DNA from: Vezdaea acicularis
Taxonomy: Eukaryota
Assembly: GCA_026025075.1 (NCBI GenBank)
Contig: JAPEUI010000068.1
Span: 62,001 to 97,504, forward strand
Direction of reading: 5' to 3'
DNA: 35,504 nt
Part shown: positions 15,241 to 35,504 of the stretch, piece after piece
How the letters are laid out: each line of letters opens with the position of its first letter
Numbering within the stretch: position 1 is the first letter of the stretch
Program-made: the position numbers and the translations under genes
The notes under the pieces: model-generated
Told to the model about the DNA's origin: nothing
Seen by the model: only the letters and a program-made list of their open reading frames with translations
The model's database searches: none

Positions 15241-15696
15241 ATTGCTAGCGATGCCGTTTTGCAGTTCAGGACTCTAAGACTGGTAGTGATAGCTCGCAGA
15301 AACGGGAAGCATGCTCCATCGATACAAGAGAGTTATTTCGCTGTTAAAGATATTGCGTTGGGCTGAAGAGCACCCGACGCGTTACCACTACGGTGGAGCT
15401 TGATGTCCTCAAAGTTTCAGATGGGAGATTTTGCGTTCGCCAATCGGAGAGCTTCACCGGACTCTCGCATAAAGATTTCGCCGAGGTCCCCTCGTCGCCA
15501 AGCATGGCGTTAACCTTTGACATGGGATATATGATAAACGGTAAAGAGTGCCAAATTTTGACTAAAAGGCCTTATTCCTATGGCGCACCCAATACAAATA
15601 TGGCTCACACCAGCCGTGCTATGCATCCCACCCATGCCCAACAAATGCTATCAAGCCATAACGCCCTAGAGCCTGCTAAATAACAATGCCGCAGCT

Positions 15697-17861
15697 TCAA
15701 TGCACTCCATTTCCATTGATTTGGGTATCTGCACCATTCTCCTCATCACCTATGTACTTGCCCATGAAGGTGATGTAATCGTATTGGGGCATTCCACGGT
15801 CTTGCTGGAGATCAGGTCCTTTGTGAGGAGGCATGGTCTTGAGGAGCTCGTCGATGACTTCATCAGGGACGAGAGAGTGGCGAAGGTCAAGCTCGGTGAC
15901 ATAGGGCTAAAAGCGTGTCAACATCAATCTAATGCTGTTATGGAAAGTTGATCTTTACCTTGCCATCAGCCACTTCCTGGAAGCTCTGGAATACTTGTTC
16001 TGCCGTATTCTGATCTTCGGTGACATCCACCATGAACCGAATGAATTGTTCAAAGGTAACATAATCTCGGCCACCACTTGTCTGATTAAATACTTCGTGC
16101 ATCTCGTTTTCGTCATAGACCAACCCCAGACTTGCGAGCGCTGCTGAGAACTCCAACTCTTGCAGGGAATTACTTAAGTCGCGATCAAAATGGCGGAACA
16201 CCGACTCGAATTCCTCGAGCTGGATTGGGGTAAGGTTTGTCATGTTTCGTGCAACCATTTGATTCTCAAGGAAGCTCAATTTCTTGGAAACGCTGCTCTT
16301 TACCAGGCTTAGCTCATATTCAAGCTCATCGTATGTGTAGGTCGTAAAGTCGTTCTCTTCAATATTGGCTTCCTCGCATTGTCCAGAAACCGCAGCAATA
16401 CTATCAAGATAGGCTTCGAGTGGCGGCAAGCTTTCGCTAAGACGTCGTACGTGCCGTAATTGATCCTCAACATCGCCTTCGAGGCCCGATATCGCAAGTG
16501 ATAGGGTGTTAAGTGTGATTGCAAAGTCGTTCGCTTTGTCGGCAAAGGTCCGGCGTAGGGCATTCTTGATACTAGGAAATTTAGTCTGGGAATCTCTTTA
16601 GTAGCGGTACAACTCACTCTCTGATAGTCTCGTTGATTATCTGACTCCTATTCCTTTCCGCCTTCATCAGTAATGCCCATACCCTATCTAGAGTCTCTAA
16701 ACTTAGTTCTGATGGCGGTTCGTACGGTCGTAACCGATACGTGCTCATCTTCGTCCTGATATTTCCCAGTAGGCCCTCCAGGTCACTTTTCTCTGTGACC
16801 CACTTTCGTTTCTGACTTCGTTTATACATGTTGAATTCGCCGGCCTGAACCTTGGCATCCGCGTAGGTGCCCTCGAACGTCGCTTGGTCCCAACTCTGCA
16901 TCTGCGCTTCAATTTGCTCCAGTAGATCCCGCACGCGCTGCTCGTATGAGTTTTGCATTCCCCAAGCGCCTTGCATATTCTGTACGAACTTCTCAACTCG
17001 GCGACCAGCATTTTCAACTCGCTCCATTTGTGAGAAGGCATGGAACCAGTATGCGATGTAGGTCATGAGTGAGCGTTCATCGGGCTTCACCACATCACAC
17101 ACATCTTCAACATCGAGGAGATCGGGGATACCAATCTCTTTAGAGGCGATGTCGAAAGCAAGCTGCATGTTGCCACGATGGTCGTTTTTGTCGAGTTGGT
17201 CGTAGTCAATTAGATCCGGACGATGAATATCCAGTAGCGCACAGAATGCTAGACCATCATTCCAACTCCCAGAAAAGTCCCGAACCTCAACTTCGTCATA
17301 GCATGCCGTCTTCCTTTGGCACCAGAGGAGTAGACCCTCCTTTGCCGTCCGACCCTCTTCGTTGATATCACTGATCGTGAATCGGAGAATGAGTGTCCAT
17401 AGAAGGCCTAGTATCAGCTTTTGGTTGCCATCAACAATGTCTTCTGCCCCAATATTTGTCGTATGGATCCCACGGAGTTTGATGAAGTCCAGGGCTTTAT
17501 TGACGTTCTCGAATTTTTGTACTCGCAATTTCGGCTTAGCAGCATATCGGCCTAGAGATTCGTTTCCAAGAATTTCAAGGAGGTGGACGAGTACGACCTA
17601 AGAACGGCTGTTCAGCTTTTTGAGGTTGCAATTGTCTGCTGTGGGCATCGGTTTGAGAGAATTGTCACGGATATGAGTGTTGCTTACGCCATCAGAAAGA
17701 TCCTTGACAAGGTCAGTGACAGCTAAGTCCCTGGACTTGAGCTTCGTATTAAGCCTGCTCATATCTCCAATCAACAATTGTACTCTACATAACCAGTTGT
17801 CCAAGCCCTACCATTTGGTGAACGTCTTCTGCTGCACCGTCACCCAACGTTGATCAGCCAT
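15697..17861 (-). CDS. ain1: Alpha-actinin (2 CH domains, spectrin repeats, EF hands); exons 17861-17812, 17754-17688, 17597-16618, 16571-15959, 15906-15697
   Basis: WVTVQQKTFTKWLN, DLSDGV.LVHLLEIL, NIGAEDIVDGN.KLILGLLWTLILRF, LLLWCQRKTACY, SWNDGLAFCALL and EF hand FRHFDRDLSNSL. Four canonical introns. Confidence 0.97.
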
Positions 17862-18130
17862 CCCCACTCCTCAATCATGGGCAATGCCGCCCCTGTAGGT
17901 ATACAAGTAATCAAAGTGACAAATATTTGATGAGACTCTAGTGGAGGCAGGGAATTTGTTTGTCAAATAGAATGTGAATAAGGAGGGGAATTTGCATACG
18001 TTTTAACAAGTGGAGACATTTAGCGAGACTATGTCAACAATGGCAACAGGATACCCCAAGCGACGCCAGGGGTCCGATAAGGTGAAGCGCGCCAGAAATA
18101 CACCCTTGGCATGCGGTTGCTGCTAAGCGA

Positions 18131-18185
18131 GCCCCTTCACGAATAGGCGGACGAAGCGGCTTCATCCGCCTATTCGTGAAGGGGC
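18131..18185. repeat. 55-bp near-perfect palindrome (27-bp arms, 1-nt centre, 1 mismatch)
   Basis: gccccttcacgaataggcggacgaagc-g-gcttcatccgcctattcgtgaaggggc. Confidence 0.97.
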
Positions 18186-18221
18186 CTCAGCCAAACACCC
18201 ACCGGATGAAGCCAGCGTCTT

Positions 18222-18962
18222 GCGCTTGAAGCGCGTGGCGCCCGAGCGTCGGCTTCCTCTTCGGTCGCGACTGGGCTTCCTGCGCTTCAAGCGCAAAGCG
18301 CCCGGACGAACCGTACGCCACTAGCCTTTCTGGGGCTTCTTACGCTTCAAGCGCATGAAGCCCCTATCATCTTAGCAGCATCTTGCGCTTGAAGCGCATG
18401 GCGCCCGAGCATCGGCTTCGCGAACGGTCGCGACCGGGCTTCTTGCGCTTGAAGCGCAGGAAGCCCAGTCGCGACCGTTCGCCACTGGCCTTTCTGGAGC
18501 TTCTTGCGCTTCAAGCGCACGAAGCCCTTATCATCTTGGCACCATCTTGCGCTTGGAGCGCATGGAGCCAACTTCCGTCCACTCGGGCTCCTTGCGCTCC
18601 AGGCGCAAAATGGTGCTAAGATGATAGGGGCTCCGTGCGCTTGAAGCGCAAGAAGCTCCAGAAAGGCCAGTGGCGAACGGTTCGTCCGGGCTTCTTGCGC
18701 TTGAAGCGCAAGAAGCCTGGTCGCGACCGAAGCGAGAACCGATGCTCGGGCGTCATACGCTTCAAGCGCAAGAAGTTCGAGTAGATGGAAAACCGCTGCA
18801 TGCGCTTCAAGCGCGAGAAGTTCGAGTAGATGGAAAACCGCTGCATGCGCTTCAAGCGCAAGATACTTCGTAGAAGATAAGGACTTCATGCACAAGAAGC
18901 GCAAGAAGCCCAGCCGCGACCGAAGGGAGAGCCGACGCTCGGGCGCCATGCGCTTCAAGCGC
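18222..18962. repeat. Long imperfect inverted repeat (fold-back) centred near 18577
   Basis: 18381-18569 pairs with 18586-18773 across a 16-nt loop. Outer blocks 18222-18290 and 18340-18397 pair with about 18898-18962 and 18847-18911. Confidence 0.92.
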
Positions 18963-19487
18963 TCCAAGTTCAGAGGGAAGCAAGAGCCACATGCGCTTCA
19001 GGTACAAGATGTTTGGACGAAAGTGAGGGTCCCATGCGCTTGAAGCGCATGTAGCCCAAGGAAACGCTCCGTTCCAGTTCTTCACTTGGCTTCTTGCACT
19101 TTAAGTGCAAACGGCCCCGACAAACGCACTGTTGCTAGTTATGGACGAGCTTAAAGCGCATCAAGGGCGTATAACCCAAGCTTCTGTTCTTTCTACGATT
19201 ATGACATGGCTACATACGCTTGAAGTGCATGTGGTTCGAGCAAACACCCTATTCCTTCTCTTTGCTTAGTTTCTTGCGCTTCAGGCGTATGGAGCCCGAG
19301 CGTACTCTCTTTTCTCGGTCATTAGCTGACCATATGTGCTTCAAGGGCATGGAGCCCGAGCAGACGCCCCCTCATGGTTTGCAGGATGATTTCTCTTGCT
19401 ATAAACAGGTGGAGCACTAATGGTTGCTCCTATACTTACTTGCTTTTGAAGCGCGCATTTTGATTATATTTGTTGCGCTTCAAGCGC
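18222..19487. repeat. Array of about 25 GCGCTT-N-AAGCGC dyads at 60/43/45-bp spacing
   Basis: Perfect copies start at 18222, 18282, 18385, 18445, 18506, 18637, 18697, 18802, 18847, 18950, 19036 and 19475. Degenerate copies start at 18342, 18549, 18594, 18757, 18890, 18993, 19096, 19156, 19216, 19276, 19336, 19396 and 19442. Confidence 0.95.
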
Positions 19488-19918
19488 GTGGAGTTGGTCA
19501 GCATCTTTCAACTTTCCGGGTAAGAGAGGCTTCATTTCTCAAGCGCTCTTTGCATGATGGGGCGGACATTAACTAAGACCTCCCAACGCATCTCAATTCA
19601 TCCTGGAGTGGAAAAGCTACAGGTCAATAAATTCGTTATATAGACTTAGCAGGAGTTTAATTCCAATTGGCGCCAGAATGAAATTGACAGCCTCTAGGCT
19701 CAGATTGTGATGACCCAACACGGACGCTATGTTCCCTTAAAATAGAGCATGAAACCAAAGCTCGAGAGAGCAACCTGATAAATAAGGAAAGCCTCATTGG
19801 GAAAAGCCCGTAACAGTTGAGGTCTTTTGAGCGTATTACGATCGTACTAGGCCCCTAAGCGTGAGAACTTTTGTTTGAATGAACGTAAAGAGACTGTTAA
19901 GTCTGAAAAGTCCTATCA

Positions 19919-21516
19919 TTATGAATCCTTGAATCATCAGCAAGTTAGCGAAATGCGTCAACTCTTCAATATCCCCAGACCCGTACATATGAAAGACCTA
20001 CCTGCGGCTTGTTCTCTAATAGAGCCAATTGCGTCTTAATATCTGCACAGCGATCTGTTAGACGTTTAGATTCCGCCGCAAGACGATCAGTCTCAAATCT
20101 GTACTTTTCCTCCTCGGCTTCTTCCCTTGCCTAGAATGTTTTAATTCAGAACTCAATTGAGACATGTGACAAGGCCATGGCCAAACTAACCTCGAGCTCC
20201 ACACAAAGTTGCTCGTAGCGCTGATCGAGTGCTGTTTGAAGGGCTTGTTGTCTTCTATCAGCCTCATCGAGCTCCTTTGTTCTCTTCTGTATGCCTTCAT
20301 CTCTTTGTCGCCGTCTTTCCGCTGCTGCGAGCTTAGCAGCTTCAAACCTCTCGCGAGCTTTGCTCATAACAGCGTCATTTAGCTTCTCAGGGCATGCAGC
20401 CACAGCTTCCTCTGATAAAGCCATATCTCTATAAGTGCGTTTCCGCTGCGCCTGGACTTCTTGAGCTTTTGTTGCCGTGCATTCTAACCCTCGCCCTATG
20501 GATACCTCGTCATCGACAAATCCCGTCGAATGAGTATCAACATCTATTAACGATTGATCGTGATTCCAAATTACTGATGATTGCCTGTGGTCTGTGTCAT
20601 CTAGCTGAGAATATTCTTCCTTGATTGCGCTTAATCTTGGGGTACTTGAGAAGCTGAAGTCTAAGGCATCTGCATTGTCCTGAAGACCGATGTCTGCAAG
20701 ACTTGCCAGTTTCCCTGGACTTGTATCAGTAAGTTGAACCCCGTAAAGCGAGACTTCTCAAACCCGAGTCTCTATAGAGGAAAATGAACTCAACCCACGG
20801 GCCATTTGGATCCCTAAGGTTTAGATTCTTTGGCATATTTCTTAACAATTTTCGTCTTGGACTCTCCGTTTTTGGGGGAGCTGGCACAAGGCTTACGTCT
20901 ATGTTAGTTTTATTGCATGATCTTGGAGTGAGACGATCTACCTGATCCAATGAGTTGGAGGCAGAGCCAAGTTCTCTTGGGAAGGAATAATCGATTTCCA
21001 GCATTCCATGTCTGTTACAGAAGGACGGCGGAGCTCAGTGCTATGTATTCCGCCTCTAAAGATCTGTATCTTTATCTCTCCTATGCCCGGTACCAGTTTG
21101 ACATTCTCTTCTTGTTGAAGCGGACCTTGTTATTCGTTAGCAAGATCTACAAACGATCCGATGGATATACCTGAAATTGGTTCGACAATCATATTGCATT
21201 CCACGGCAGCCCCCTCTTGATGCCTGGCATCATAACAAAATTCGAAATCTTTATTTGTGAATTTCCAAGTTGGAGCTTCGCTGCAGGAGAACATCGTAAA
21301 CCGAAGGACCCCATCAATACTAAAGTCCCATTCAAGAGTCTCTTTGGTTGCGGTCTTATAGGAGCATTTGAGCTTGATCTGCTCTTTTGATATTACTGGT
21401 ATGATTGAAGTGACCTTATGCCCATCGCGTGCAGAATGGTATTCATTGAGGATTTTATTATTGGCCAGCGCTTGAACTTTGACCGAAATGTTTGTAGTAT
21501 TGTCGTGGATATGCAT
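19919..21516 (-). CDS. DUF7918-like fungal protein with C-terminal coiled coil; exons 21516-21171, 21125-20942, 20891-20764, 20714-20191, 20130-20002 and a short last exon (stop at 19919, alternatively 19847)
   Basis: Five GT-AG introns link the fragmentary ORFs into one frame. Motif order ILNEY..DFSIDG..GEIKIQIFR..PTHWI..PWVEFIFLYR resembles DUF7918 from memory. The E/R/K/A-rich helical tail suggests a coiled coil. Confidence 0.7.
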
Positions 21517-22224
21517 CTTGGCGATCGCTTTGGTAGGGAACCTAGAGAGCTTGTCAGCGGGACAAGCTTCAAGTGAGATGAATAGAAAGAAGATTCTTAG
21601 TGAGATAAAGTGTAGGTCGCATACAGTGGCAATCCGCAGATACTTCGAACGTCAAATTCAAAGTAGGCGAGGAGAAATATCAACGCTGTAGCACTGGAGA
21701 TGAAATGAAGCCTTTGCACTCAAGCTCGACAGAATACAGGGGCCGCAGGAGAAGAGAGCACAACCGGCGCCGCAAGATTCAAGCCGAATTCCAAACTCAA
21801 CACTGACAAAAGGTGTTATGACTGCAGCACTGGCAGTGAAATAAGGACTCTTCTGTTTGAATTTGGCATTGAAAGGGATAGGAGTTGGTAATGCAGTTTG
21901 TAAAGTTGAGATAGGAGATCGGTAATAGGAACGCCGATAGTAGTTAGCACTGCCTTACGAGTTCTCAAATCACAAAAGGTCATGAGTGGAAACAGATCTT
22001 AAAATCATCGAGAAATTTTAAATCACACAAACAGGAATGAAAGACACGGCAAGGGACATCGGTATTTTACGTTCCATCTCACTACAGGTAGAGAAGTCTG
22101 ATAGTTCCGCATTTCAAGAAAACAAGTAGTTATATGCCCTGGAATGAGAGCAATCAATTTTTCTTTCTCGCATCTACTCACAGACCACTATTCTTCTCGG
22201 CCCCGTAAGCGCTGGGTGAGACTT

Positions 22225-22295
22225 GCGCTTCAAGCGCGTTGAGTCAAGTTGACATTCTTTTTTGTGAAGCCAAACTGCAAGCGCTTGAAGCGCTT
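22225..22295. promoter_or_regulatory. Two isolated perfect GCGCTT-N-AAGCGC dyads (22225-22237, 22281-22293)
   Basis: Same motif as the array. The second extends to the 17-bp dyad aagcgcttgaagcgctt. They lie about 700 bp upstream of the DUF7918-like gene; a regulatory role is inferred. Confidence 0.55.
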
Positions 22296-22462
22296 TGAGC
22301 GTCAAAACTGGCCACGATTTAACAAGGAGCTGCGGGAAAAGGATTTGCTTTATCCTTTTCTCTTACCACTGCACTCAACTTACTCAGCCCTCTGAGCCTA
22401 TCATCCCCACAATGTTTACTCATTCTCCCCATCTTTACGTCTGACAATCGGCCAAACCCGCG

Positions 22463-22908
22463 TCATTGTTTATCGACTCCTACAAACATGAGAGATGAAA
22501 ATTTACGAGGAAAATACGCGCAATCAACGTACGAGATGTGTTCATACATGTTCAAGCCCAAGGATCTACCGCTGGGGCTGGAACAGCAGTAGAGCGGTAG
22601 TGACAAACAGTGCGCTACTGGCTGAGACTGGCTGCCCATTGATCTTGTTGCTGTGAACACCTGTCCCGGAAAAGTGGATCGTATCTTTAAAGTCGCCGCA
22701 GTTGTGGTCGCGATACCTATTTGCACGTTGAAGAGGGGTTAGAAGGAATGAAAAGAGGAGATTAGAGGAAGATTTCATGGATGAAGTGAAGAGCTAGGGA
22801 AAAGGAGAAGTAAGACCAGTTGACCTGCAAAGCAGAAGCGCCATGTACAATTATTGCGCCAGCGACGGCAAAGGTGAGGAGGTATAGCGATTTGGATGGT
22901 GTTGACGT
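22463..22908 (-). pseudogene. Possible relic of a small secreted Cys-containing protein
   Basis: Signal-peptide-like (ACG)STPSKSLYLLTFAVAGAIIVHGASA, then LQVNW/YRDHNC across a putative intron 22816-22717 (weak donor, CTAAC branch). No ATG, and a probable later frameshift. Confidence 0.35.
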
Positions 22909-23645
22909 GTAGGTATTGGCGTTTCTTTGCGTCTGTTTAGTGGACTGAACTGGAAATTTGAGTACGGATTAGCATAGAAGCTGGTGATGCGATAGAGACA
23001 CAAATAAGTAGTATTGAAGCAAATGGGGCCTCCATTATTTATCACACGTCTACTGTGCGTGAGAATCCCAAGACACCTTGCCGGACCAAACTCTTCACGG
23101 GTCATATCATGGGTCAAGTGAGGTTGCAATGCCTCTGCTCCCAACGCCCAAGTCGCGAAACAATGCCCCATCCTCCTTGTCTTCCACAAAAGTTCCGTGC
23201 GATGAGACTCGTAATAGAAGCTTATTATCAATACGAGGTCTATGTTGCACGTGTTTCGTAACTCTGTCAGTATGGTAGAGGGTGGCATTAGCTAAAGGTC
23301 TTTAACAGAAAGTAGAATTACGAAGACGACTAGGAAAGTAACGTATTATACTCAAATGTTATAACATCTTTTTCAAAGTGCTTATTAGACTTTTGGTTTG
23401 ATGCAGGTGTTCTCCGCGTTTTGGGGACGTTTACACGCACAGAAGGACACTGAACAGAGAGCACTGGGTTGCTTGAAGAAAACAGGCATCTTGGATCCTG
23501 TAGCAGCTTCTAGACATCTTCAGATGGTTGGAAAACAATCGCCCGATCCCTCCATTTCTCAAAAACTTCCACTAGATAGACCTACTGTTAGTCGGCTATC
23601 GTTATTCCCATAATCGTGACAAGGATGAAAGATTGAAGACGTACC

Positions 23646-24026
23646 TTAAACGTTTGCGGCTACGTTGGCGGCCTCTTCTTCTCCATGATTGGCAAGGTCT
23701 TCGCCGTTGTCTTCGAGGATGGCTCGCGCCACTTCTGTTGTTATAGGGACACGATCAAAATCACGCTCCCAGACAGCAACGTTACCACCGCCGAGAACCT
23801 TTGCCTTGACGGCTGGAGTTGAAGTTGATCAACGAAGCGCCTCCAGAGTCCACATTGCAACCGAAGACTTTAAAGAAGTGATTTGGACTGTTCAAGCCCC
23901 TTCTCCAGCGAATGAGACGATTTCGTCGCCGTTGAACCTCCCGTGCAACTCTAGATACCCTATCCAATCGATAACGCTGCCCCGCTTCGAGGCTTTTAAG
24001 GCAGCCATAGTTACTTTCTTGAGGTT
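23646..24026 (-). pseudogene. Exon-like frame with two in-frame TGA stops
   Basis: After GCTAAC..TTAG: NLKKVTMAALKASKRGSVIDWIGYLELHGRFNGDEIVSFAGEGA*TVQITSLKSSVAMWTLEALR*STSTPAVKAKVLGGGNVAVWERDFDRVPITTEVARAILEDNGEDL...; stops at 23892-23894 and 23829-23831. Confidence 0.4.
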
Positions 24027-24226
24027 CTAAGGACAAAGAGTTAGCTTGGATATCTGGAGATCGGGTTTACTCATAATCGGCATGTTTGAAATACGTCGAA
24101 TTAGATCGATAAGTGATTGCTTACCGGCTGTCGTGGGTTGAATGCTTTGATAAGGTAGTTAAAGGTGGCTATATGTGTCTATCGGGTTGGTGAAATGCAC
24201 TAGGTTGAACATGCGTATCAATAGCG

Positions 24227-24363
24227 AGTGAATGCCGCTGCGGGAGTGAATGCCGCTGCGGAAGTGAATGCCGCTGCGGAAGTGAATGCCCCTGCGGAAG
24301 TGAATGCCCCTGCGGAAGTGAATGCCTCTGCGGAAGTGAATGCCCTTGCGGAAGTGAATGCCC
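24227..24363. repeat. 18-bp minisatellite AGTGAATGCC(G/C)CTGCGGA, about 7.6 copies
   Basis: Directly visible tandem units with stepwise variants. Confidence 0.97.
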
Positions 24364-27059
24364 AATATCACATGCGTTATCCACGTTACAATTTCTGTCC
24401 GCTAGGTAAGAGCCTTGAGACTCCGTACTCTCTTTGATGTGAAAGCTCCTTCAACCGAATTCGTGTATGCCCGTAGAGCTCTCGCCCATACTCAAATATT
24501 TCCCGATGTCAATGACCTTGAGGTGATATTTATACCCTTCTGTGATTCAATTGCATTCTGATGCCCTTTGTCGGAATGGCGGCTATCGACAACCGCCACC
24601 CATCAAACAATAGTTCCGCAATCCATACGGCGATTGGTGAGATAAGCAGGAGAGACGGAATTACTAAAAGCCTGAAAGACTTTTCCGGTGAAGTTGACCT
24701 GGTGCTGAGACGTCCTGAAAGTAACGCACTTGACGCGTTTGCCCTTTGTGACGCCTCAGGCCTGGAGCAAGCTGGCAATATGTAAAAGGAAAAGTTGGGA
24801 GTAAGAGAAGATGGTACTCTTAAAATGGACAAAGATAGGCCAAAGGCAACAAGCTGTTCTCTAAAAGTGAAAGCGGCTTAGCCCACTTCTTGCTTATGGT
24901 CAAGGTTGCCTAGACATTGCTTTAGCTGTCCTCCCAACAGAGAATTTTTCACACATTAAATGGCCCATATTTCTCACTTACATGTCCATTACCACAGCAG
25001 TCAATGCCCCACTTGCCTCCATCTATAGGTATGCTTTGTGACGTCCACTTGATCTTGCCAAGCAATTGGGTCCTAAGTAGCTACTGCCCTGTCAACAGTT
25101 TGGAATATAGAGATTTTTATAGGAGACTTGAATAAGCTCTTGAGGAGAGATAGTTATCTAAACTTTCCTTAATGCATATCCAATCAACCAGACAATATTT
25201 TTATCCGAGTTAGAGCCTGAGTTTGTGTGCCAGTAATGCCGTTGCATGTTTTACTTTGGAAAGACTTCAATGGCTCTTCTATCAGTCGGTATTGCTAGCT
25301 GATTTCCCAGTGTATTTGATGTATTGGAACGTATTTCAGAAGCTGAAGGTAAATTTGGTCTTTCCCGCGAATACTTTCTGGGTGAGAGAGAGCTTTAATG
25401 AGGTCGGAGTGGATCCTATGAAAACTTTCCCTGATTCAAGAACGTGATACTGGAGAGCTGTTCTTGAACCTCTTCTTGCTCCATCAAGCAGTATGGGGAG
25501 TGCGAGCGCACTAATTGCCAGTACATTATTTTTGACAAATGATGCGCCTTCATCCTCTAGCAAAAACGTATATGAAAATTTCTCAATGCTCTCGTTTTCC
25601 TTTCCGTAAAATTCTGCTGAAGCCCATGTGGTTGAGCTGATAAAGGAAGATGTGGTTCCGCGCTCTCGGAAGAGCTGGTGTAGTCACTGTAAAACCCCTC
25701 CTTCGATGAACACAACTAGTGAAAGTGCCAATCAGGAAGATTCATACCAAAGATAGTAGGTATGAGTTGTAGAATGCTTCCCATTTTACAGAAACCTTCC
25801 AAAGAGCCCACACAAGCATCTGCGCCTAGAGTCGTCAATGAACGACATTCCGTATATCAAACCTTTCAAAAATGATAGACATCTTGCCCCTGGTCTCAAT
25901 ACAGGGCAATCTCTCAAGCCTGGATACGTTCAGGTCCGAACAATTTTAGACCTGTGAGCGCTAGTCTCTTCATCATCGAGCGGTCTCTTACGCCCTAAAC
26001 TTCTCAGCTTTCGTCATTACCATGAAGCTCTAAACGCGTAGCGCATCTCCGCAAATTACTCAACAACAAGCCCGTTATCTACAACGCTCTTGCCGACTTT
26101 CAACTTGATCGTAAGCTAAACCTTTGCAAGACACAGACTTCAACCGCTTGACTAACAGCTTAAAGTTGCGATCTGCCATGGAGCCTAAACGATCTTCCCA
26201 CGCTTCTTGTACTCGACAAAGCTGTGAGTTTTTGATATCGAAATGGACTTCCAAGGGGAACTGTGATCTTTCAACGTCTTAAGTGGAGTAACTACAATCT
26301 TTCACCAAGAAAAGCAGCCCGCCACACGGAATCAGATACTCGTTGTTCTAGAATAACCCCCGGAACAGGGTTTCAGAAATTTGTAGTGCGCAATTCTAGT
26401 ACTTACAACAATATTGAAGATAGGAGCGGTCCAAACAGAGATGCTGTGGGAACTACAAAATGAGATGCGGCTGTAAGGCGGCTAATTTCGAGCTGACCTG
26501 ATCAGACATGGTACTTATTACTGCTTGCATGTTTAATGAGAAATGCTAGCTAGCTAACATACAACAACTGATTGCATAGCTTCAGGTTGATGAGATGTAT
26601 GAGCCTACACGGAAGCGTTCTAAAATCATGTCCACTTCTTTTGATCGGTAACTTCTTACGGACTAAGAATTCATAAGATCAATCTGACGTACTGATCTCT
26701 ATTTCTAGATCAAGTATACACGTATCATCTAGAAAGATCGTATACGAAGGGCGGGAGGATTAATGTGGAAGAATTCCACAATTGATCAAGGGTGTTGGAC
26801 AATGCAGCAATTTTGAGATATGCTCCTGTGGGTTACTAGAAGGTAGAGAGCACGTTATGGATGGACTACGCTAGAGGGAGCTAGACTGTATCTACAACCT
26901 TTTCCCTGTGTCATTTTCGGCCAGAGATCTACGTCGCCTTCTTGATAATCAAGTCGGTAATAAGCATGCTTTAAGCTTAAATCTAGAGAGTAAATCTCTC
27001 ATTCAATCGAGTAAGTACTCTTTGGGTTCGAAAGATTTATTGTATTGCATCTCCGGCCT

Positions 27060-27638
27060 TCAGTGAGTGTCTGATCTTGTTAACGATTCTTGTAGCACTG
27101 ATAACCGCTCCGCCACCAACTTGATCGCCCCTAAGATGATCTGAACGCAATACTTGGACTCGACAACCAACATGTTTCTCTGTGAATCATTACGTCCGAT
27201 GCTGACTAGATCAATGGTGTGTTGCAGGTATGCTGCTCCACAAGCAAGGTGTAGTGATGAGAGTTCGCCGTATGACATGCTGTTGTTGGAGGCATCATCT
27301 TGATCAAGTCGCCTCTGTATACTCTCTCCGATATTCTTTGATGATAACTGACCATCTAAAGAGTTCAACAAATGACTAAACATCTTTGAAAGATGGACCT
27401 AGTTACCAGTAGACCGATCATTGACGCCTTGCATGTCCAGAATTTTATCGACAAGTCGAGCAATGACAAGCACATCATCTTCGACATTAGATAGCTGCTC
27501 ACTCTTGCTTGCAGCGTCGTCGGTGAGTCGATTCATAGCTAGAGACTGTGGTTGAAGTGGTATTTGGAGTGTTTCTTGAGGTAAGAGCTTCCACTGTACT
27601 TGAGCTCGAAATAGGTTGACGTGAGCATGAACAATCTT
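27060..27638 (-). pseudogene. About 190-codon helical frame interrupted by one TAG (27399-27401)
   Basis: KIVHAHVNLFRAQVQWK...DDVLVIARLVDKILDMQGVNDRSTGN*VHLSKMFSHLL... continues in frame into ORF 27060-27383. Confidence 0.5.
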
Positions 27639-28581
27639 CTACGTTTAACAGGGCAAACTTGGAACAGCATACATTTCAACTATCGGCTCAGACCGCATTA
27701 CTCAGACCGTATTACTCGACTGTATTGACTTCATGTCGTTTTCCAAGCTACCTGTCGTTCACAAGACACGGCGCTCCTTATATCGCTTGGTCTCTAGCAA
27801 AGGCAGCAGAGGACTCCCATACGTTCAGCTTCTGTACCAAAAAGGCGCTTGCCTTTTATCGATTTAGGGGGTCATAGGAATGGTTGGACCCCCCAACTAC
27901 TCTGAATGACCAACTCTATCCAGCTAAGCTTTACGTCCAGCATTCAGCTTTTAGGGGTGGCGAGTAGTCCCATCACTTGTATCAGGAAATTAGTCCTTCA
28001 AGGGTTGGGACTGGAGGAAGTCGGCGAGTGGACGGTGGAGAGAATCACCAACCTCTTCGGCATGTGTGCCTAACCTCCCCGAGTTCATCGGGTAAGCAAA
28101 TAAAGCCACAAGGCCTTCCCGCCTTCCTACTACCAATCACAGGATGCAATGGCAGAGACATACCCTGGTCGGGGGTCTCGCGTAGGCGCAAATACGCTTT
28201 AGCGAGTGCACTTGAATAACGCGTTGGAATCCACGCTAGTAAGTCTCCTCCTAGAAATGACCACTTGTTAGTGACTGGCACGCACAGGAGATCACTCTCC
28301 CGTTGTGTTGAGTGAATGTTCTCTCGTCTAGAGGAAGGCGTGTACGCCTGAATGCATGACCAAGACCTGTGATGCTACACAGATTAGTACGTTTTGCCCT
28401 GTGAGTAACCACCTATTGACGACAAGCACATCTTAAGGGGAAACCCTCCTACGACGTCAGAATAATGACCCCATACCTCAACTAGATGTCTGCCAGGTTC
28501 CGTTGCAACCCCTTCTTGAGCGTCAAAACCGAGTCATTCCAAAGATCTGCATAATTGAGCATCAACTCTTTCGAAAGCATA

Positions 28582-29583
28582 ATGGAGCTTAGCGCTCCGG
28601 AATCATACGAAAACCATCCTCAACTCATACATGCTGTCGAAAAATTCCATGCGGACATTGAGAGTATTGCAGCGGATATTGAATTACCTCGTACTCGTAT
28701 CGAGGCTATTGCAAAGAAATCCTTGTCGGACATCTTCGTAAGATCTGCAAGAGGACCAAGTAGCTGGAACAATTTCGTTCAAGGGATGCAAAAGACGCTG
28801 CCCGGCAATAAAAAAGATTTTGGTCTAAACACACGTCACTTATCGACTCTCTGGCGTGGATTGTCACAAGAAGAAAAGGCACAATACAGACGTGGCCGAA
28901 GGACGAAAAGGAAATCGGAAGTACAGAACGCCCAGCTGCGACGTGTAGTCAACGATCTCCGCAGAAAGGTTGTGCCTTCGGCTTTTATGGATCTTCGTGC
29001 TGATTGATTTGCATAGGTGGATGAGATCTCCAAGCTTGGAGCTGACGCTCTGTTCTTTGTGTGCGACAACAAGAAACAAGGCCAAGGAGGTGGTCTTTCA
29101 AGCGCTTTCGGGTCGCCTCAAGCGGTTCGGTTTACTCAATGGATGGATGCGCACCGGGTCGGCCTCATTGACTTTAAGAGGTTTTGCAAGGGAGAGGAGC
29201 TCTCACTTAATCATCGTGATATCATAACTTTAAGAAGAACTCAGGACCCGCTTCACTCAAGGCATGATCAAGAGGAATTAGAAATGCTCTCTCGAGACGC
29301 GAGTCGGTCTCGCTTGAACGCAAGTTTGCTTGTAATGTTTAACCAGGCGGTAGAACATCATGACAAACTTTTGCGTCTCCCCCCAAAAAAGAGTTGGGCT
29401 TCGTGGATGGAAGTAAGAGGGCTGGAGCTTGTCATTGAAAACCCAAACATCACCAGATCTGACTTGGAAGAACGCTTGCAAGGAAAAGCCGGCGTTGCAA
29501 AGATGAAAACGATGATATCTGGCATTGAGAATGGTGAAATCCGCCTGCAAAACATTCGACGCGACCTTGGATCAAGCTCTTAA
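28582..29583 (+). CDS. HMG-box-like DNA-binding protein; exons 28582-28968, 29017-29583
   Basis: RGPSSWNNFV...LSTLWRGLSQEEKAQY followed by a basic tract RRGRRTKRK. Intron 28969-29016 GTTGTG..GCTGAT..ATAG joins the two ORFs in frame. Confidence 0.75.
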
Positions 29584-29649
29584 CTCATACCTTATCTTCT
29601 AAGTAAAATATGAACGGACAGGATCTGTAGTAGGCAGTAGCGGTACCTT

Positions 29650-30706
29650 TCATAATACAACTGCCGTCCGGTGATTTGAATAAATGACATCAGTGCTGTT
29701 GTTTGAATCCGTCAGCGTCGATGGATCAAATACGAAAGTTGAAAGGGTTGACACGTACGCACTGATTCTTGAGCTTGTCGTTTGAGACGAAGACTGTATT
29801 TGCGGAAGCCACGAAAGCGGAGCACCCAAGCCAGCTCCTTTATCTATTGAAGAACCAATGCATGAAGGATCGGAAAGCTTCTTTCTCAGCATTAAGACTT
29901 AACCCTTAGCCTTAACAGAATAACGTCTCGATAGTAGACGACGTTCGGCTCAAGGCCTTGATCTCGTTTCCTCTTTATGGCCAGGCCAGCCAGCGTGCGA
30001 AAAGACACCCAAGCCACTTTGAGCAGCCATTTCTAATTCAACAAAAATACACACCGTCAAAAACCTAATAGAGTCGTGAATAAGTGACTTCGAGGAAATT
30101 TTGGATGCCAAAGATACGTCAAATGAAAAAGATAACACATGTTTATCTCATAATCACTCATCAGAAGTGAAGATAATACATATCCCGATACCCACTCTTA
30201 AGTTCGTCATGGAAGGCCAGAATAAGGATTGCAAGATTTGTTCCCTGCCTTCTTTATTTGAATGAAAGGCACGGAGATCGGTAGGGACGTGTTTTCTGTA
30301 GGTGTGTTCATTATGCTGTACACAGTATTTGGGTAATCCAGAAGTTGGATAGTAACAGTCTCGTGATGTGTCATCTCCCGTCATTCGTAGGCAGACAGGG
30401 ATAGAAGCGATCAATTTGTCAATGGATATCAAGCGATTTTCTTTGAATGAGCTAGGTTGGATGCTATGTGAACATATCATGGCCTTACATTATCCTGATT
30501 CTCTCTATATCGACGATTGAAAAGTTGATATCTGCAGCATTGGAGAACATACTAGGCAAGGATGGAGTCAGAACCCAACGCGCTTGTCCCGTTCTAAGCG
30601 CATATGTGGCGTCTTCGACTCCGTTAAGCCACTCGCGAATATGTCTGGTGAAAACGCGCTTCAAGCCTGGAGAACGATCTTTCACCCGTGTTTGATGGGG
30701 AAACAA
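29650..30706 (-). pseudogene. Degraded gene: three co-framed ORFs separated by isolated stops
   Basis: ORFs 30480-30154, 30138-29950 and 29892-29650 share one frame broken by TGA, TGA, TGA and TAA. The upstream ORF 30706-30485 ends at a GTAAGG donor-like site. Confidence 0.4.
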
Positions 30707-31617
30707 TGCTAGCTCATTAGAGAATGGTGTCAGTGAATGTCAGATCTTATGACGCGAAGTGCTTTGATCGAACCATGTCGAATATTGCACGACTGCCATG
30801 AGGACAATAATCTTTTTCACCGTGAAGTTGACCATGACTGCGATGTTTTGACCGGAATTATCTTAACTTGAACGGGGCCAGAAGCTTTTGATAACTTAGT
30901 CTTTACCGATATGTGCAGTGGAGTATGTGACGAACCGTTTAAAAGGCTCACAATAAGCTTACAGATGACGAACCCAAGACAATGCAAGCCTTCTATGCAC
31001 CAGAGCAATTCTGTACATTGAGTTCTAGCTCTAAGAGAGCATGATCATCCTTGTCGATGATAAAAGTAGAGCTGATTCTCTCTATCGAAGCGTTCAGGAG
31101 TGAGGTCTAGGTTGGATGCAAACATTTTCCCCACAATTGATGACTATGAGGGCGCCAACAGCAGTACAAAGCTTGACAGTGGTCTTAGATGAGAAATAGA
31201 CGTGATTCATTCGTCTTCTGTGTAGTACCTTTGAGATTTTCCTTGTTGGGATACAGGTATGTAGAGGGAAAACAGTTAGATTGATAGTAGCACATCTGTT
31301 CTGTCTGCCCTTGCGAGATCTGTGAATTGGGTTTCACCAGTTTTTGCTGCAAGAAACTACCCTTAAAGTTGAGCTTTTTAGAGACGGACAACCTGAACGG
31401 CAAAGCTGCCAAATATCCTGCAACAAACTATTCCGATTGCACTTAGGATAGGAGTGTACCGTTTTGGTATGAGATTGAATGCTTTCAAGATGCGAGTTGT
31501 AGCTTTGTTGATACCTAGTGGGGGAATGCATCAGAGGATGAGTTGCCCTTTGGTTTTGATTTTGGGAAAAAACAACGAAACGGCTCATACATAAGGCCAA
31601 AGAGGGAGAGATCAGCT

Positions 31618-32593
31618 CTATGCTTTACGTCTAGTCCCACTTCTTGTGGCATGTTGCTTGGACAAGGTGCGTTTCTGCCTCTTTGGCTTGTGGACTTCGT
31701 CCAAAAGCTCCCTTTCATCACGTTCGGCATCCTCTTCAGCTCTACTGACATGTCCAGGCGTGTCTTTATCAGAATTGCCGTCTACTATACGTGAGAGTCA
31801 GATAAGGTTGGAACAAGACGATGTCAAAGTACTAACCCTGTTCATCGCGCGATTCCACGTTCTCACTCTCATCATCGCCCTTGCTGGGTCCATGATCGCT
31901 GGCCCCGTCTCTTTGGTTCTCGACGTTTGAACACGCATAACTAGATTCGTTGTTCCTCTTCCGTGCCTGCAAAGTAACCGGAGTCCTTCCGTCTCTGTTG
32001 GGTATGCTTGGGAGACGTGGTTTCTCATTGATGAGCTCAATTAACAGCTGCTTGTGTCGTTCCGTAAGCACTGGCATAGCCGCGGCTATGGCGTTTTTTG
32101 CCGTTAGATATGGCTTCGGGTCCTCCTTAGTGACAGTAAAGGGGGGCTTGGTATCACCATCCCAGGCTGAGCTGAACCATCGATTCGTCCATTTTGCCCA
32201 GAAGCGCTCTTGTCGGGTCTCCTGCTCGCAGGCATCCTTGGGTTCTGACTCGTCTTGCGAATCGTCCTGATCGTGTATTACACAGATATTGACAATCTGG
32301 AATGCGCCTGTTCTAGCAAATTCTTTACCATTGCTGTAAACGTGATTTTTGATCATCTTATCAAGTCCGCTTCTTTTTGCCTTATCTTCGCATCTCGAGA
32401 TGTCAAGCACATCCATCAAGTTATTCCAGTTCTTCGCAGCGTCTTCTCCCTTTTTTCCACAATCGGATTTCATGATCTGATCATGTTCGACCATCCACCG
32501 TGCAACAACCATTTCGATGAGAGGCGGTAACTTTTTCCTAGGTGCACCAAGGTCGACCTTCATCCACCAATATTCTTCTTGGACCGGCTCCAT
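31618..32593 (-). CDS. Orphan Trp-rich protein, paralogue A; exons 32593-31837, 31784-31618
   Basis: 253-codon ORF plus intron GTTAGT..CTGAC..TAG leading to an acidic/basic tail (KPKRQKR). Clear homology to the gene at 34106-35045. Confidence 0.75.
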
Positions 32594-33019
32594 ACCAGCT
32601 AACGCTCACCTATAATTGAAATCAGCATGAAAACAAAGCTGCAATAATTGTGTAGTAGTTCAATTCGACAAAGAAATCGCCTCCGTTCGTACGTTCGTAT
32701 GATTAGGCTTTGGGAGGAAGGGGGTCATGAGGGAGTTGGAGAGATTGAAGCACGCTAGAAGCGAATAAAGCGCTTGAAGTGCGCTTAACCGACGTCCGTA
32801 GCTTCCTGTCTGCATCAAAAGTTTTGAATTACCATCGTGTAGGAAACTGGTGGCTCTAGCAAGAGCTCAATTTTCACCTTTACAACCTCTAACACCACCC
32901 ATTCTTCCGTCATCATGGATGGGTCTTGGCATCTTGTCATAAATTCCTCTCAACTCCATCCATAAAACGTTGTTAGCATCTCTCAACGCTGGCCTTCTCC
33001 ATCTTCTGCCAACCTTGCA

Positions 33020-33668
33020 ATGGCTACTGTAACGCAGGAAAGACTCCTGCTAGAGCAAGAATTCCTCCCTGCACCAGGCAGTGCAGGAGCCAAAAAAATC
33101 GTCAGGTCTATCGGAATCGATCGAAATATCTATGAGAAGTATTACAACGAGGTATATATGCAACTGATAGCTCGCTCTTCGTGGCAGCTAACTGGATATC
33201 AAGCGTATTCATTCCAATCTCCTCAGCCCTCCCAGAACAACATTCTCGCCGACGCCGACCTTATTCTCCCAAGACCCATGGCGATCGCCATCAGCGACTA
33301 ATGCTGATTGGACTGAGCACGATGCAAACAGGTTGAGCGTCGTTCTTGCCATGGCGCGAAAGCAGGGCGATCTGGAGTTCGTTCCCAAGTCATCGCTGGT
33401 ATGCCATACCATCCCGGAGATCAAAGCCGCTGTCGACGATATCTGTAACGCAATAATAGCAGGCAATAAGGACAGGAGAAGGATTGCGGAAGTCAGAAAA
33501 TCTAGGGCAGGTATAGCCAAAGAGGAAAGACTTCGGCGAACACGGAAGATTGTTGAAGAGGGCCATCGATTTATCGGGATGAACGTAAGAAGATATCAAC
33601 AATGTAGGCTCAGGTCTCTTCTTAAAGGCGAAGTTTCTAGATCAAGGATCTCCAGTGCTAGACATTGA
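33020..33668 (+). CDS. Orphan basic protein; exons 33020-33151, 33204-33668 (3' end uncertain)
   Basis: Intron 33152-33203 GTATAT..GCTAAC..AAG joins ORFs 33020 and 33333 in frame; R/K-rich helical C-terminus. Confidence 0.6.
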
Positions 33669-34105
33669 AGCCTGTATCACGTACTGGCGTAACTTGGAGT
33701 AAACTTGCTTGGTTGTTTCTCTGAAATAGACCATCAAAAGGATGGCGATGCAAAGTCCTCGTATCTTATTTGTCTGGATCCGCGAGTAGATATCGGGTTT
33801 GCTGCAGGTGTTCTCATAATACCAATAGTCGATAATGGCATTCCAATTGCTCTACAATGAAGCTCAAAACGCGCACCAATTCCTCCCGATAATAACGTAG
33901 TAATGACATTCATCCTATTCAACTTGAGTCGCTTGAAGCGCTACATGTGTGCCCTACCCATAGACAAGAACGATCACGTGACTGAAGCTCCTATCATCGG
34001 TTATTCTGATATAAGCAGCCCGCAATTAAAGGGCCTTGTTCTCTTTGAGCAACTTGATTGATACAATTATCCTGAGCACGGTGTTTTCAAACATTATCAC
34101 GCGCG

Positions 34106-35045
34106 ATGGTAAGGCGTTTCCTGACTCCCTTCACGTTCTTTTTTGGCTGAACTCTACTCATGTTATCTTGGAATCAGGCCGAGAACAGAGTTGGCTCACC
34201 CCTAGCAATCTCACGAGCACCAAACAGCCCGCCATCACGCGAATCATCCGAGGAAGGATTGTCGTTCAAGGTTCATTAAACGATCTTTAGTAGTTGTTAT
34301 AAAGTACTGATATTATATTCTGCAGCCCTTAAACTCAAAGCGATCTCTGAACGAAAGGCGAAGAACTTCTTCCGATGAAGATGGGTCTGGCGCAGGCATG
34401 GAAGCACCCAGCGTCGTGAAGAAGAAGCAATTAAACAGGGAGAGCCAAATAATTGTAAGGAGGTGGATGGCTAGGCATGATCAAACTCGGAAAACGGATT
34501 GTGGAATATATGGTGAAGATCCTGGAAAGAACTGGGAAGAGCTCTTTTGGGAGCTGGGCTATAGAGGTAGGGTGCCCCCAGATGTGGATGCGAAATATCG
34601 CACATACGTTCGCAATGAGGGCAATCGACTTGAGGCCAAAGGAGTTTTTGTGAGGGCGGAAGTCCCTGATGGAGAGGGACGGCTTAAGGCCAAGGAAAAG
34701 CGGATATGGAAATCTTGGACAAAACTTTGGGAGGAAAAAGGCTGGGATGGAAATACTAACCCGCCCCAGCTCACTGTCGAGGGTGTCAAAGTTTCCATTC
34801 ATCCGGCTATCCGCCTCATGTCCTATTCAGAACGCCATGCTTTGGTCAAATGGATATTGGATGTTGGTGAATGTCCTCCAACCACATCATCGGACGGGGC
34901 GAACCAAAAACGAACGGTTCTAGATGCTTTTCACGAAGACCGGATCGCGAGCGACTGCTTGTTGTCTCTTTCGAGTTCTGCAACCAGCGAAAAGAGGAGG
35001 CGAATCGTTATACCAACTAGTCGAGTTCCACAGCGTTCACGATAA
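34106..35045 (+). CDS. Orphan Trp-rich protein, paralogue B; probable exons 34106-34108, 34178-34270, 34326-35045 (core ORF 34398-35045; both ends uncertain)
   Basis: Shares RWM..HDQ..K.DCG..GED..KNW..L and W..WT..W....WDG.T.PP with paralogue A. Upstream GT-AG introns preserve the frame. Confidence 0.75.
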
Positions 35046-35346
35046 CCCCCAAAAGCCCATCAACGGCAAATCGACCTCCGGCTCCACCACGGTCTTATCC
35101 TCGACCTCGACCTCGACTGTCGGGGCGGGGATCAAAAGTATTGCTGTGACAAGCACAAGCGTGAGCGACGGGAAGGCTGCAGCGCCAGTTTTTAAAAGAA
35201 AGAAGAGAGTTTTGGGCCTGAATGTCAGGGCAAGATGTACATCAATAGAAGGGTACCTCGTCGGCCAGGACGAGTGCCATCTTGGTCTTGGTCAACGCCG
35301 TCCCTATTTTTCCTACCTTTCCTATCTCTTCGGTCGTGCTCTCAAC

Positions 35347-35504
35347 GTCCAGTATCTCTGTCGTCACTGGCTCTGTTGTCACTGGCTCTGTCGTCACTGG
35401 CTCTGTCGTCGCTGGCTCTCGAAGTCCAGTATTTCTGTTGTCGCTGGTTCTGTGGTCGCTGGCTCTCGATGTCCAGTATTTCTATTGTCGCTGGCTCTGT
35501 GGTC
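35347..35504. repeat. 15-bp tandem CTCTGTCGTC(A/G)CTGG nested in a 47-bp higher-order repeat; runs off the window
   Basis: Visible 15-mers; the GTCCAGTAT anchor recurs at 35347, 35424 and 35471. Confidence 0.9.

Follow-up and report, generated by a model that had tools for sequence, protein, structure and literature searches.

The question raised by this locus is what begins where a conserved run of fungal genes comes to an end. We analysed a window of 35,504 nucleotides from the lichen fungus Vezdaea acicularis, an ascomycete of the Pezizomycotina (order Vezdaeales), comprising positions 62,001 to 97,504 of contig JAPEUI010000068.1 (GenBank assembly GCA_026025075.1, forward strand). Its conserved genes end at alpha-actinin and are followed by a short palindrome, an array of dyad-symmetric repeats and some 16 kb of orphan genes. 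A first-pass annotation, made from the letters alone, took the palindrome and array for the terminus of a large, unclassified mobile element. Nothing in our analysis shows the block to be such an element, and the best reading of it is a different one. The most economical interpretation, which we hold tentatively and at somewhat less than an even chance, is that a fragile fold-back minisatellite edges a strain-variable, lineage-specific segment.

Measured from the start codon of alpha-actinin, the palindrome and the array occupy the spacer between 240 and 1,630 bp upstream. The 55-bp palindrome is present as first described, at 18131-18185; its single strand has a folding energy of -31.4 kcal/mol, compared with -10.3 ± 2.1 kcal/mol for 200 shuffled versions (z -10.1), and this is its sole copy in the window. 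The array of 1.3 kb was likewise borne out by counting. The 17-mer CTTGCGCTTSAAGCGCA occurs 20 times between 18219 and 19488, mostly at spacings of 43, 45 or 60 nt, and the 13-mer core of the dyad (GCGCTTSAAGCGC), allowing one mismatch at most, is found 19 times in the window against an expectation of 0.17, a number attained by none of 100 shuffles. Fifteen of these 19 cores lie inside the array, and when up to three mismatches are allowed the cores fall at 23 positions (18222-19475). The basic period is 60 nt, accompanied by the 43- and 45-nt variants, and many cores widen into perfect or near-perfect palindromes of 19-35 bp.

The left part of the array is folded back upon itself. At 18218-18569 stands a higher-order unit of 164 nt in 2.2 repeats, and an inverted copy of it follows; a 45-nt period is repeated 2.4 times, and the right arm of the fold-back contains an additional 45-bp tandem at 18754-18863. 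The inverted arms are nested, one pair of 192 nt being 86% and another of 96 nt 94% complementary, with only 16 nt between the inner pair, and the whole is internally symmetric around a centre at about 18577. As a single strand, positions 18222-18962 form one continuous hairpin of ~740 nt with a folding energy of -352 kcal/mol, compared with -166 ± 9 kcal/mol for 20 shuffles (z -20). Further right, the repeats decay. One mismatch or fewer is seen in 14 of 16 cores at 18222-19036, against two of eight at 19036-19475; the cores at 19096-19442 carry two or three mismatches, the 60-nt phase is still kept right of 19036, and GC content at the decayed part falls from 0.587 to 0.457. The array combines the old, decaying part of a minisatellite with a younger part remade as a fold-back. 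The fold-back is symmetric, the decay runs rightward, and a one-sided row of conserved terminal sites is not what the array presents. Rfam gave no match in the window at its gathering score, and at E ≤ 1 only generic long-hairpin and microRNA (miRNA)-precursor models, all below their cut-offs. A 93-nt tRNA-Ser(tga) called by ARAGORN at 19005-19097 is probably a hairpin artefact, and we discount it because Rfam shows no tRNA there even at E ≤ 1.

A structural boundary exists beside the palindrome, at 18101. We aligned the contigs of four metagenome runs from a single study (X1-X4) to positions 15505-35504 at 80% likeness. The comparison used contigs, which omit rare variants, rather than reads, and the depth of the runs was 2-11x; its results hold among the pieces listed, beside which 167 more pieces and 87 more loose ends exist. 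Left of 18101, the genomes of this fungus that occur together agree at 98-100%. A 1,265-nt contig from X2 (record 9) follows the window over 16961-18101, departing from it at 25 positions and by one gap (2.2%), and then continues for 125 nt unlike the window. An X3 contig also leaves the window at 18101, for 255 unlike letters, and the first 30 of these are the same as in X2. This 30-letter continuation has no match within 15505-35504 of the window or in the metagenome contig collection, and among the joints listed none brings the alternative contigs back into 18102-35504. In two of the four runs the break falls 240 bp upstream of the ATG of alpha-actinin, with 30 bp between it and the palindrome to its right.

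The two sides of the break are also covered unevenly. In X3 the flank is represented by five contigs within 15679-18085 (1,728 nt, no differences), and the 16 kb to the right is matched closely by two of the contigs listed (396 nt), with 16 of 24 bins empty. Every bin of the right block is filled in X1 and X2, at roughly 3-6x, and cover in X4 is patchy. Flank and block thus vary in proportion from run to run, and in one or more of the co-occurring genomes the flank is joined to other sequence. The boundary could be that of a strain-variable segment, the end of a giant element or a chimeric join within the contig.

Gene content changes across this region in the way that the first-pass annotation had proposed, with conserved genes stopping at alpha-actinin: domains lie to the left, and none to the right exceeds its Pfam cut-off. 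By Pfam, the left 18 kb contain a methyltransferase, RIX1, a TPR protein, MBOAT_2, one domainless gene and alpha-actinin, whose ATG occupies 17861-17859 on the minus strand and whose first intron follows codon 17. On the right we scanned 150 of the 152 stop-to-stop, six-frame open reading frames (ORFs) of at least 50 aa that overlap 19400-35504, the two omitted lying in the array, and we also ran Pfam on 30 larger ORFs of the whole window. No transposase, recombinase, reverse transcriptase, Rep/helicase or polymerase domain (PolB included) was found in the 150 right-hand ORFs, and no match to DUF3435 or any other recombinase, KDZ or Plavaka in these or in the 30 larger ORFs. The right-hand ORFs contain no Pfam domain over cut-off, and below it only an HMG box and a metallothionein-like match.

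These genes had been described as orphan or decayed. Orphan they are, with one to four matches each among 5.8 billion clusters for all three right-hand proteins searched; decayed they are not, as the short ORFs are exons of intact, spliced genes with GT..AG introns of 48-52 nt. The proteins P0004 and P0001 are identical or 99% identical to annotated hypothetical proteins of V. acicularis from a metagenome-assembled genome (MAG), which between them bear the names M1824_005520 and M1824_005519. The coiled-coil gene nearest the array has its own sequence, P0016, as its only match, has no Pfam domain and resembles the left genes in codon score, a measure that parts coding from non-coding sequence weakly and is a hint only. 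The duplicated family of unknown function that had been suspected is genuine: its two ORFs, 31832-32605 on the minus strand and 34311-35045 on the plus strand, are 25-27% identical (E 6e-18) and conserve the motifs W..HDQ..K.DCG..GED..KNW and W..WT..W...WDG.T.PP. The family has three matches in the 5.8 billion clusters, and the proteins P0010 and P0011 carry the motif W..W..DWDG.T/V.PP. A profile of this family (A1) drew ten matches at E ≤ 0.001 from 1.84 billion representatives (four at ≤ 1e-30 and a fifth at ≤ 1e-10), and neither A1 nor A2 has a relative in the viral contigs.

Copies of these genes exist elsewhere. P0004 has four matches, one of them the paralogue P0005 (69% identical), from a different contig of 14.3 kb that bears the same species name. 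Runs X1-X3 contain diverged relatives (~80-95% alike, in short patches) of 28012-29403, 24532-24663, 32142 and 34965-35005. Their depth is like that of the flank and equal to or above that of the window's own copy, so that the HMG-like and duplicated families must be multi-copy in the community or the genome; the diverged HMG-like relatives fit the paralogue P0005. The source model P0008 (410 aa) spans both 33021-33584 and 34311-35045 across a gap of ~740 nt that holds the dyad core at 33929 and a TATA-like box, and two separate genes seem more likely here than one.

Table 1. Positions of the repeats, the boundary and the genes within the window.
Feature	Position	Strand	Details
Alpha-actinin gene, last widely conserved	15938-17861	-	CH domain E 9.5e-40; EF-hand and Ca-insensitive EF-hand
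Breakpoint	18101-18102		X2 and X3 contig loose ends share a 30-letter consensus
Palindrome, near-perfect, 55 bp	18131-18185		27-nt arms, 96% complementary (1 mismatch), 1-nt loop
Dyad array, ~23 units around GCGCTTSAAGCGC	18216-19490		Spacing 43, 45 or 60 nt
Long fold-back in array	18222-18962		Left arm 18222-18569, centre 18570-18585, right arm 18586-18962
Older, decayed 60-bp units	19036-19490		Cores with 2-3 mismatches at 6 of 8 positions
Orphan coiled-coil gene	20134-20805	-	Main exon ORF 20149-20757; more exons likely downstream to ~19900
Two exact solo dyad cores, 56 nt apart	22225-22293		Core search (starts 22225 and 22281)
HMG-like gene, 2 exons, 317 aa (P0004)	28582-29583	+	Exons 28582-28968 and 29017-29583, 48-nt intron 28969-29016
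P0001 gene, intact, 307 aa, first copy of duplicated family	31621-32593	-	Exons 32593-31838 and 31785-31621
Dyad core, 1 mismatch	32770-32782		Divergent spacer; 177 nt upstream of P0001 ATG, 251 nt upstream of ATG 33021
Small orphan gene, two exons	33021-33584	+	Source model P0008 fuses it with the next gene
Dyad core, 1 mismatch	33929-33941		Between two plus-strand genes
Second copy of duplicated family	34398-35045	+	27% identical to P0001
15/47-nt tandem repeat	35356-35504		Reaches the last base of the window; (TTEPV)n on minus strand

Other tandem repeats accompany these features. The one that closes the window, whose minus-strand reading resembles a low-complexity protein tail, is probably the reason why the contig stops at 35504; the contig is given as 97,504 nt for the proteins encoded here, exactly 62,000 more than the window, which would make the window its last 35.5 kb. 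An 18-nt repeat at 24227-24363 (7.6 copies, 95% identity) reads as (SECxCG)n in one plus frame; this cysteine-rich hexapeptide ORF gave the metallothionein match (E 5e-4; 21.3 bits, where 23 are required) and has no in-frame ATG, so that it represents either a later exon or a mere minisatellite. In the conserved left part, a 19-nt repeat lies at 1097-1262 (8.7 copies, 68% matches).

The first-pass annotation had spoken of orphan nuclear genes, one of them HMG-box-like. In Pfam the likeness to an HMG box stays below threshold: P0004 scores 18.4 bits against a cut-off of 25.4 for HMG_box (PF00505) and 15.4 against 22.4 for HMG_box_2 (PF09011), and its paralogue P0005 scores 16.9 bits against an HMG-box cut-off of 22.4. 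Residues ~53-113 of P0004 align with HMG boxes in 15-16 of 50 VIA-align rows (Z ≤ 5.1) at a local pLDDT of only 47-70, and the Atlas relates the protein at 0.94 to an 'HMG box domain-containing' cluster, the nearest cluster with a Pfam family being GTF2I at 0.79. A GTF2I-like region is suggested at residues ~215-311, where GTF2I structures take VIA-align ranks 1-2 (Z 6.7, rmsd 3.5 over 86 aligned residues, and Z 5.7); P0004 has no Pfam match to GTF2I (PF02946), and its best Foldseek match is 2eje (E 0.35, probability 0.90). Residues 16-96 of P0001 resemble homeodomain-like three-helix bundles in about 20 of 50 rows (Z ≤ 4.9), with a Zeste/Myb-like match at Z 3.7. The underlying AlphaFold models are poor (mean pLDDT 52.4 and 47.5) and these fold matches are leads only; Foldseek returned no match in the Protein Data Bank at E ≤ 0.001 for either model. 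For the ORF 21133-21651 on the minus strand the best Atlas value, 0.79, was uninformative. At least three proteins of the block weakly resemble DNA-binding proteins, and 'orphan, probably nuclear DNA-binding' is a fair label, if a weakly supported one.

Dyad cores also occur outside the array. Four lie in the block (Table 1), which is unlikely to be due to chance given an expectation of 0.17 for the whole window; they may serve a dimeric factor as binding sites, or else be what is left of dispersed copies of the repeat. Part of the 45-bp unit, 40 nt long, was found within otherwise unrelated X1 and X3 contigs (loose ends 18762/18802 and 18807/18847). In viral contigs the 17-mer dyad was present at 46 loci and nowhere as an array, 45 being single matches and the remaining one (L021) a single site read on both strands. 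A two-dyad pattern occurred at 19 loci in metagenome contigs, none with the flanking context of the window. GC-rich hairpin arrays with the core GCGCTTSAAGCGC and other flanks, for example CGCGCTCGAGCGCGCTTCAAGCGC, are carried by six contigs (L051, L057, L058, L060, L061 and L063), and L058 packs 17 cores into 820 nt (about 1654-2473). These are possibly an independent hairpin-satellite family of other eukaryotes, and we take them as analogues of the window array rather than relatives. As the same core is present in six unrelated metagenome contigs, such cores can evidently arise independently. In the excerpts of the literature available, the two 13-mers occur in one unrelated paper, inside a primer-like string, and nothing relevant was found on fold-back repeats in fungi.

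We are now able to propose how the repeat and the boundary may be connected. Together, the palindrome and array are one non-coding, hairpin-forming minisatellite with units of ~60 bp, each centred on the dyad core. Over its left 740 bp it has become one long inverted repeat, and its right third is the old, mutated remainder. The repeat would mark the edge of a strain-variable, lineage-restricted segment of at least 17.4 kb, in place of which other genomes carry different sequence from 18101 rightwards. The segment holds ordinary-looking, intact, intron-bearing small genes belonging to tiny multi-copy families, and no mobility gene was found in it. Inverted repeats able to form hairpins or cruciforms are expected to stall replication and to be cut, so that template switching would extend them and adjacent DNA would undergo insertions, deletions and rearrangements. 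The array may accordingly be viewed as the cause or the scar of a structural variant, and not as a working transposon end, with strain variability rather than misassembly the probable origin of the differing contigs. Additionally, the dyad core may be bound by a dimeric factor, a suggestion that we make because the four further cores sit in spacers within the segment.

Several observations weigh against a fold-back minisatellite at the edge of a variable segment. The fragility that would drive the process is taken from general knowledge of inverted repeats. No listed contig links 18101 to the palindrome in the arrangement of the window, so the junction may be an assembly chimera. The near absence of the block from X3 is read from patchy cover in runs of 2-11x from one study, and the boundary data appear compatible with either the window or the alternative contigs as the derived side. 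Furthermore, a sharp break and a variable block of orphan, multi-copy genes would also be expected at the end of a giant mobile element, and the one-mismatch dyads at 32770 and 33929 are possibly there by chance (p about 0.01).

The competing explanation that survives best is an assembly chimera, in which the actinin locus was joined at about 18101 to an unrelated stretch of the same or a related fungus. It is a serious rival, although we consider it unlikely. The window is metagenome-derived, the runs containing it are metagenomes only, and its proteins bear the source name 'MAG'. None of the contigs listed bridges 18101-18131 in the manner of the window, those of X2 and X3 continuing otherwise, and record 9 of X2 passes 18101 unbranched even though X2 contains the right block at 3.4-5x. 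The depth ratio of block to flank varies by run, and GC content changes from 51.6% on the left, through 55.7% in the array, to 45.8% on the right. Against a misjoin, 18040-18215 shares with the rest of the window no repeat of 12 nt or more that could bring one about. The right-hand genes have short introns of fungal type, in some cases with a codon usage like that of the left genes, and the paralogue of the HMG-like gene is filed under the same organism name. Finally, X1-X4 may come from another sample than the contig, so that their junctions need not match that of the window.

The idea with which this analysis began, that the window contains the end of a giant cargo element of Starship-like or new kind, has to be judged in two parts. 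The boundary was upheld by the break at 18101 in two of four runs; the terminal structure was not, as the break falls 30 bp outside the palindrome and the array is symmetric. For the array to consist of subterminal recognition sites, and for the recombinase to lie beyond the contig end, strikes us as decidedly unlikely. Such an element would account for the sharp break, for the run that has the flank nearly without the block, and for orphan genes with paralogues elsewhere, namely P0005 and the diverged relatives of 28012-29403, 32142 and 34965-35005. Short motifs repeated in both orientations are also known near the ends of elements of the CACTA and hAT type. Against this, neither a DUF3435 or other tyrosine recombinase nor a DDE, KDZ/Plavaka, HUH or PolB gene is present among the 150 scanned ORFs of the 16 kb, and neither an inverted nor a direct copy of the dyad and palindrome end occurs elsewhere in the window. 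A second end, a target duplication and a recombinase were all sought in vain within the window, which stops at 35504, the apparent contig end. The symmetric fold-back with its decayed units looks more like the product of satellite dynamics than like conserved binding sites. No comparable dyad array was seen in viral contigs, and the 19 metagenome loci lack the flanks of the window.

Starships, which occur in the Pezizomycotina, are described in the available parts of one account as having a captain, the DUF3435 tyrosine recombinase, at the 5' end, cargo, direct repeats and, in some cases, terminal inverted repeats (TIRs), and as being recognised through an empty site (PMC11162782). Like them, the window has a lineage-specific block of at least 17 kb, unevenly present, beside a housekeeping gene in a Pezizomycotina host; unlike them, it has no captain in the 16 kb available and only one end, and its palindrome and 1.3-kb dyad array are without counterpart in the architecture as set out in those parts (PMC11162782). 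The array shares with the subterminal arrays of CACTA, hAT and Mutator elements its many copies of a short motif, in both orientations, over ~1 kb at a putative boundary; it differs in lacking an outer-edge TIR and a transposase, and in being at least four times longer, folded back and partly decayed. The usual auxiliary cargo of Starships comprises DUF3723, ferric reductase, patatin-like and NLR genes, none of which is among the Pfam results for the ORFs of the window.

A variant of this idea takes the block right of 18101 for one end of an undescribed, large, strain-variable insertion with its own DNA-binding proteins, for which the dyad array would serve as a binding platform, the recombinase again lying beyond the contig end. 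The proteins in question would be the HMG-box and GTF2I-like protein and the divergent homeodomain/Myb-like pair, as far as their predicted folds suggest. Parallels would be found in DNA transposons, whose subterminal repeats bind the transposase, or in yeast nuclear plasmids, whose partition proteins bind arrays of repeats. We regard it as improbable. The literature excerpts available contained nothing relevant on GTF2I and HMG proteins in fungal transposons.

One or more non-autonomous fold-back transposons, similar to fold-back (FB) elements or miniature inverted-repeat transposable elements (MITEs), may instead have inserted upstream of alpha-actinin, in which case the orphans would be fast-evolving native neighbours. 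Long, non-coding inverted arms made of short tandem subrepeats are a hallmark of such transposons. The array shows the main structural trait of FB-type elements and long-inverted-repeat minisatellites, with arms of 43-60-nt tandem subrepeats, a short unique centre, no coding sequence and an extreme potential to form a single-strand hairpin. The 40-nt piece of the unit in unrelated X1 and X3 contigs and the four solo cores additionally suggest dispersed copies. If the insertion measured only 0.1-1.4 kb, however, the alternative contigs should come back to the window before 19.5 kb; none is listed as doing so, and the 30-letter continuation is not in the window. Direct repeats bordering the palindrome or the fold-back were not seen by eye, and the window differs from FB-type elements in having no visible flanking target duplication, a single known copy, no FB-type transposase nearby and an array that continues on one side as decayed direct units. 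We give this explanation little credence.

It is very improbable that the array is a functional cis element, whether a predicted array of dimeric transcription-factor sites serving alpha-actinin and the orphans, with one of the DNA-binding-like proteins of the block as a possible factor, or a hairpin-RNA locus giving rise to small RNAs. The core is a perfect, regularly spaced dyad with four further examples in the spacers of the block, that at 32770 preceding two divergent start codons by 177 and 251 nt, and HMG-like/GTF2I-like and homeodomain-like proteins are among the products of the block. Against a long-hairpin miRNA-precursor model with a cut-off of 268 bits, the fold-back reaches 139 bits. 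The right third of the array is decaying, however, which argues against selection on the sites, and an alternative haplotype has no array beside the same actinin promoter, so actinin does not need it. The Rfam matches are to generic hairpins and stay below threshold, and the DNA-binding assignments are weak (Z ≤ 6.7, model pLDDT 47-52).

A homology break with an HMG-like gene beside it also recalls a mating-type (MAT) idiomorph, which in ascomycetes has an alpha-box or MATA_HMG gene between flanks of the APN2/SLA2 type. The abrupt loss of similarity next to a 98-100% identical flank and the HMG-box-like gene inside are alike; the flanks of the window (alpha-actinin, an unknown gene and MBOAT_2) and its extent of at least 17 kb are not, and no alpha-box or MATA_HMG match exceeded the Pfam cut-off in the right-hand ORFs or P0004. 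We rejected this candidate on account of the genes at its flanks and of the paralogue P0005, which is 69% identical and bears the same species name. A subtelomere or a repeat altered by repeat-induced point mutation (RIP) gains nothing either, as neither RIP-like dinucleotide bias nor TTAGGG runs were found in the window.

The significance of a fragile fold-back minisatellite at this position depends on the junction at 18101. If it is chimeric, the locus is a caution against inferring 'element ends' from metagenome-assembled fungal contigs. If it is real, a hairpin-forming fold-back sits exactly where close relatives lose collinearity in a little-studied lichen fungus, and orphan, probably DNA-binding proteins lie beside a repeated perfect dyad. 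The locus would then be informative about the way in which inverted repeats give rise to structural variants, and about the origin of lineage-specific gene blocks.

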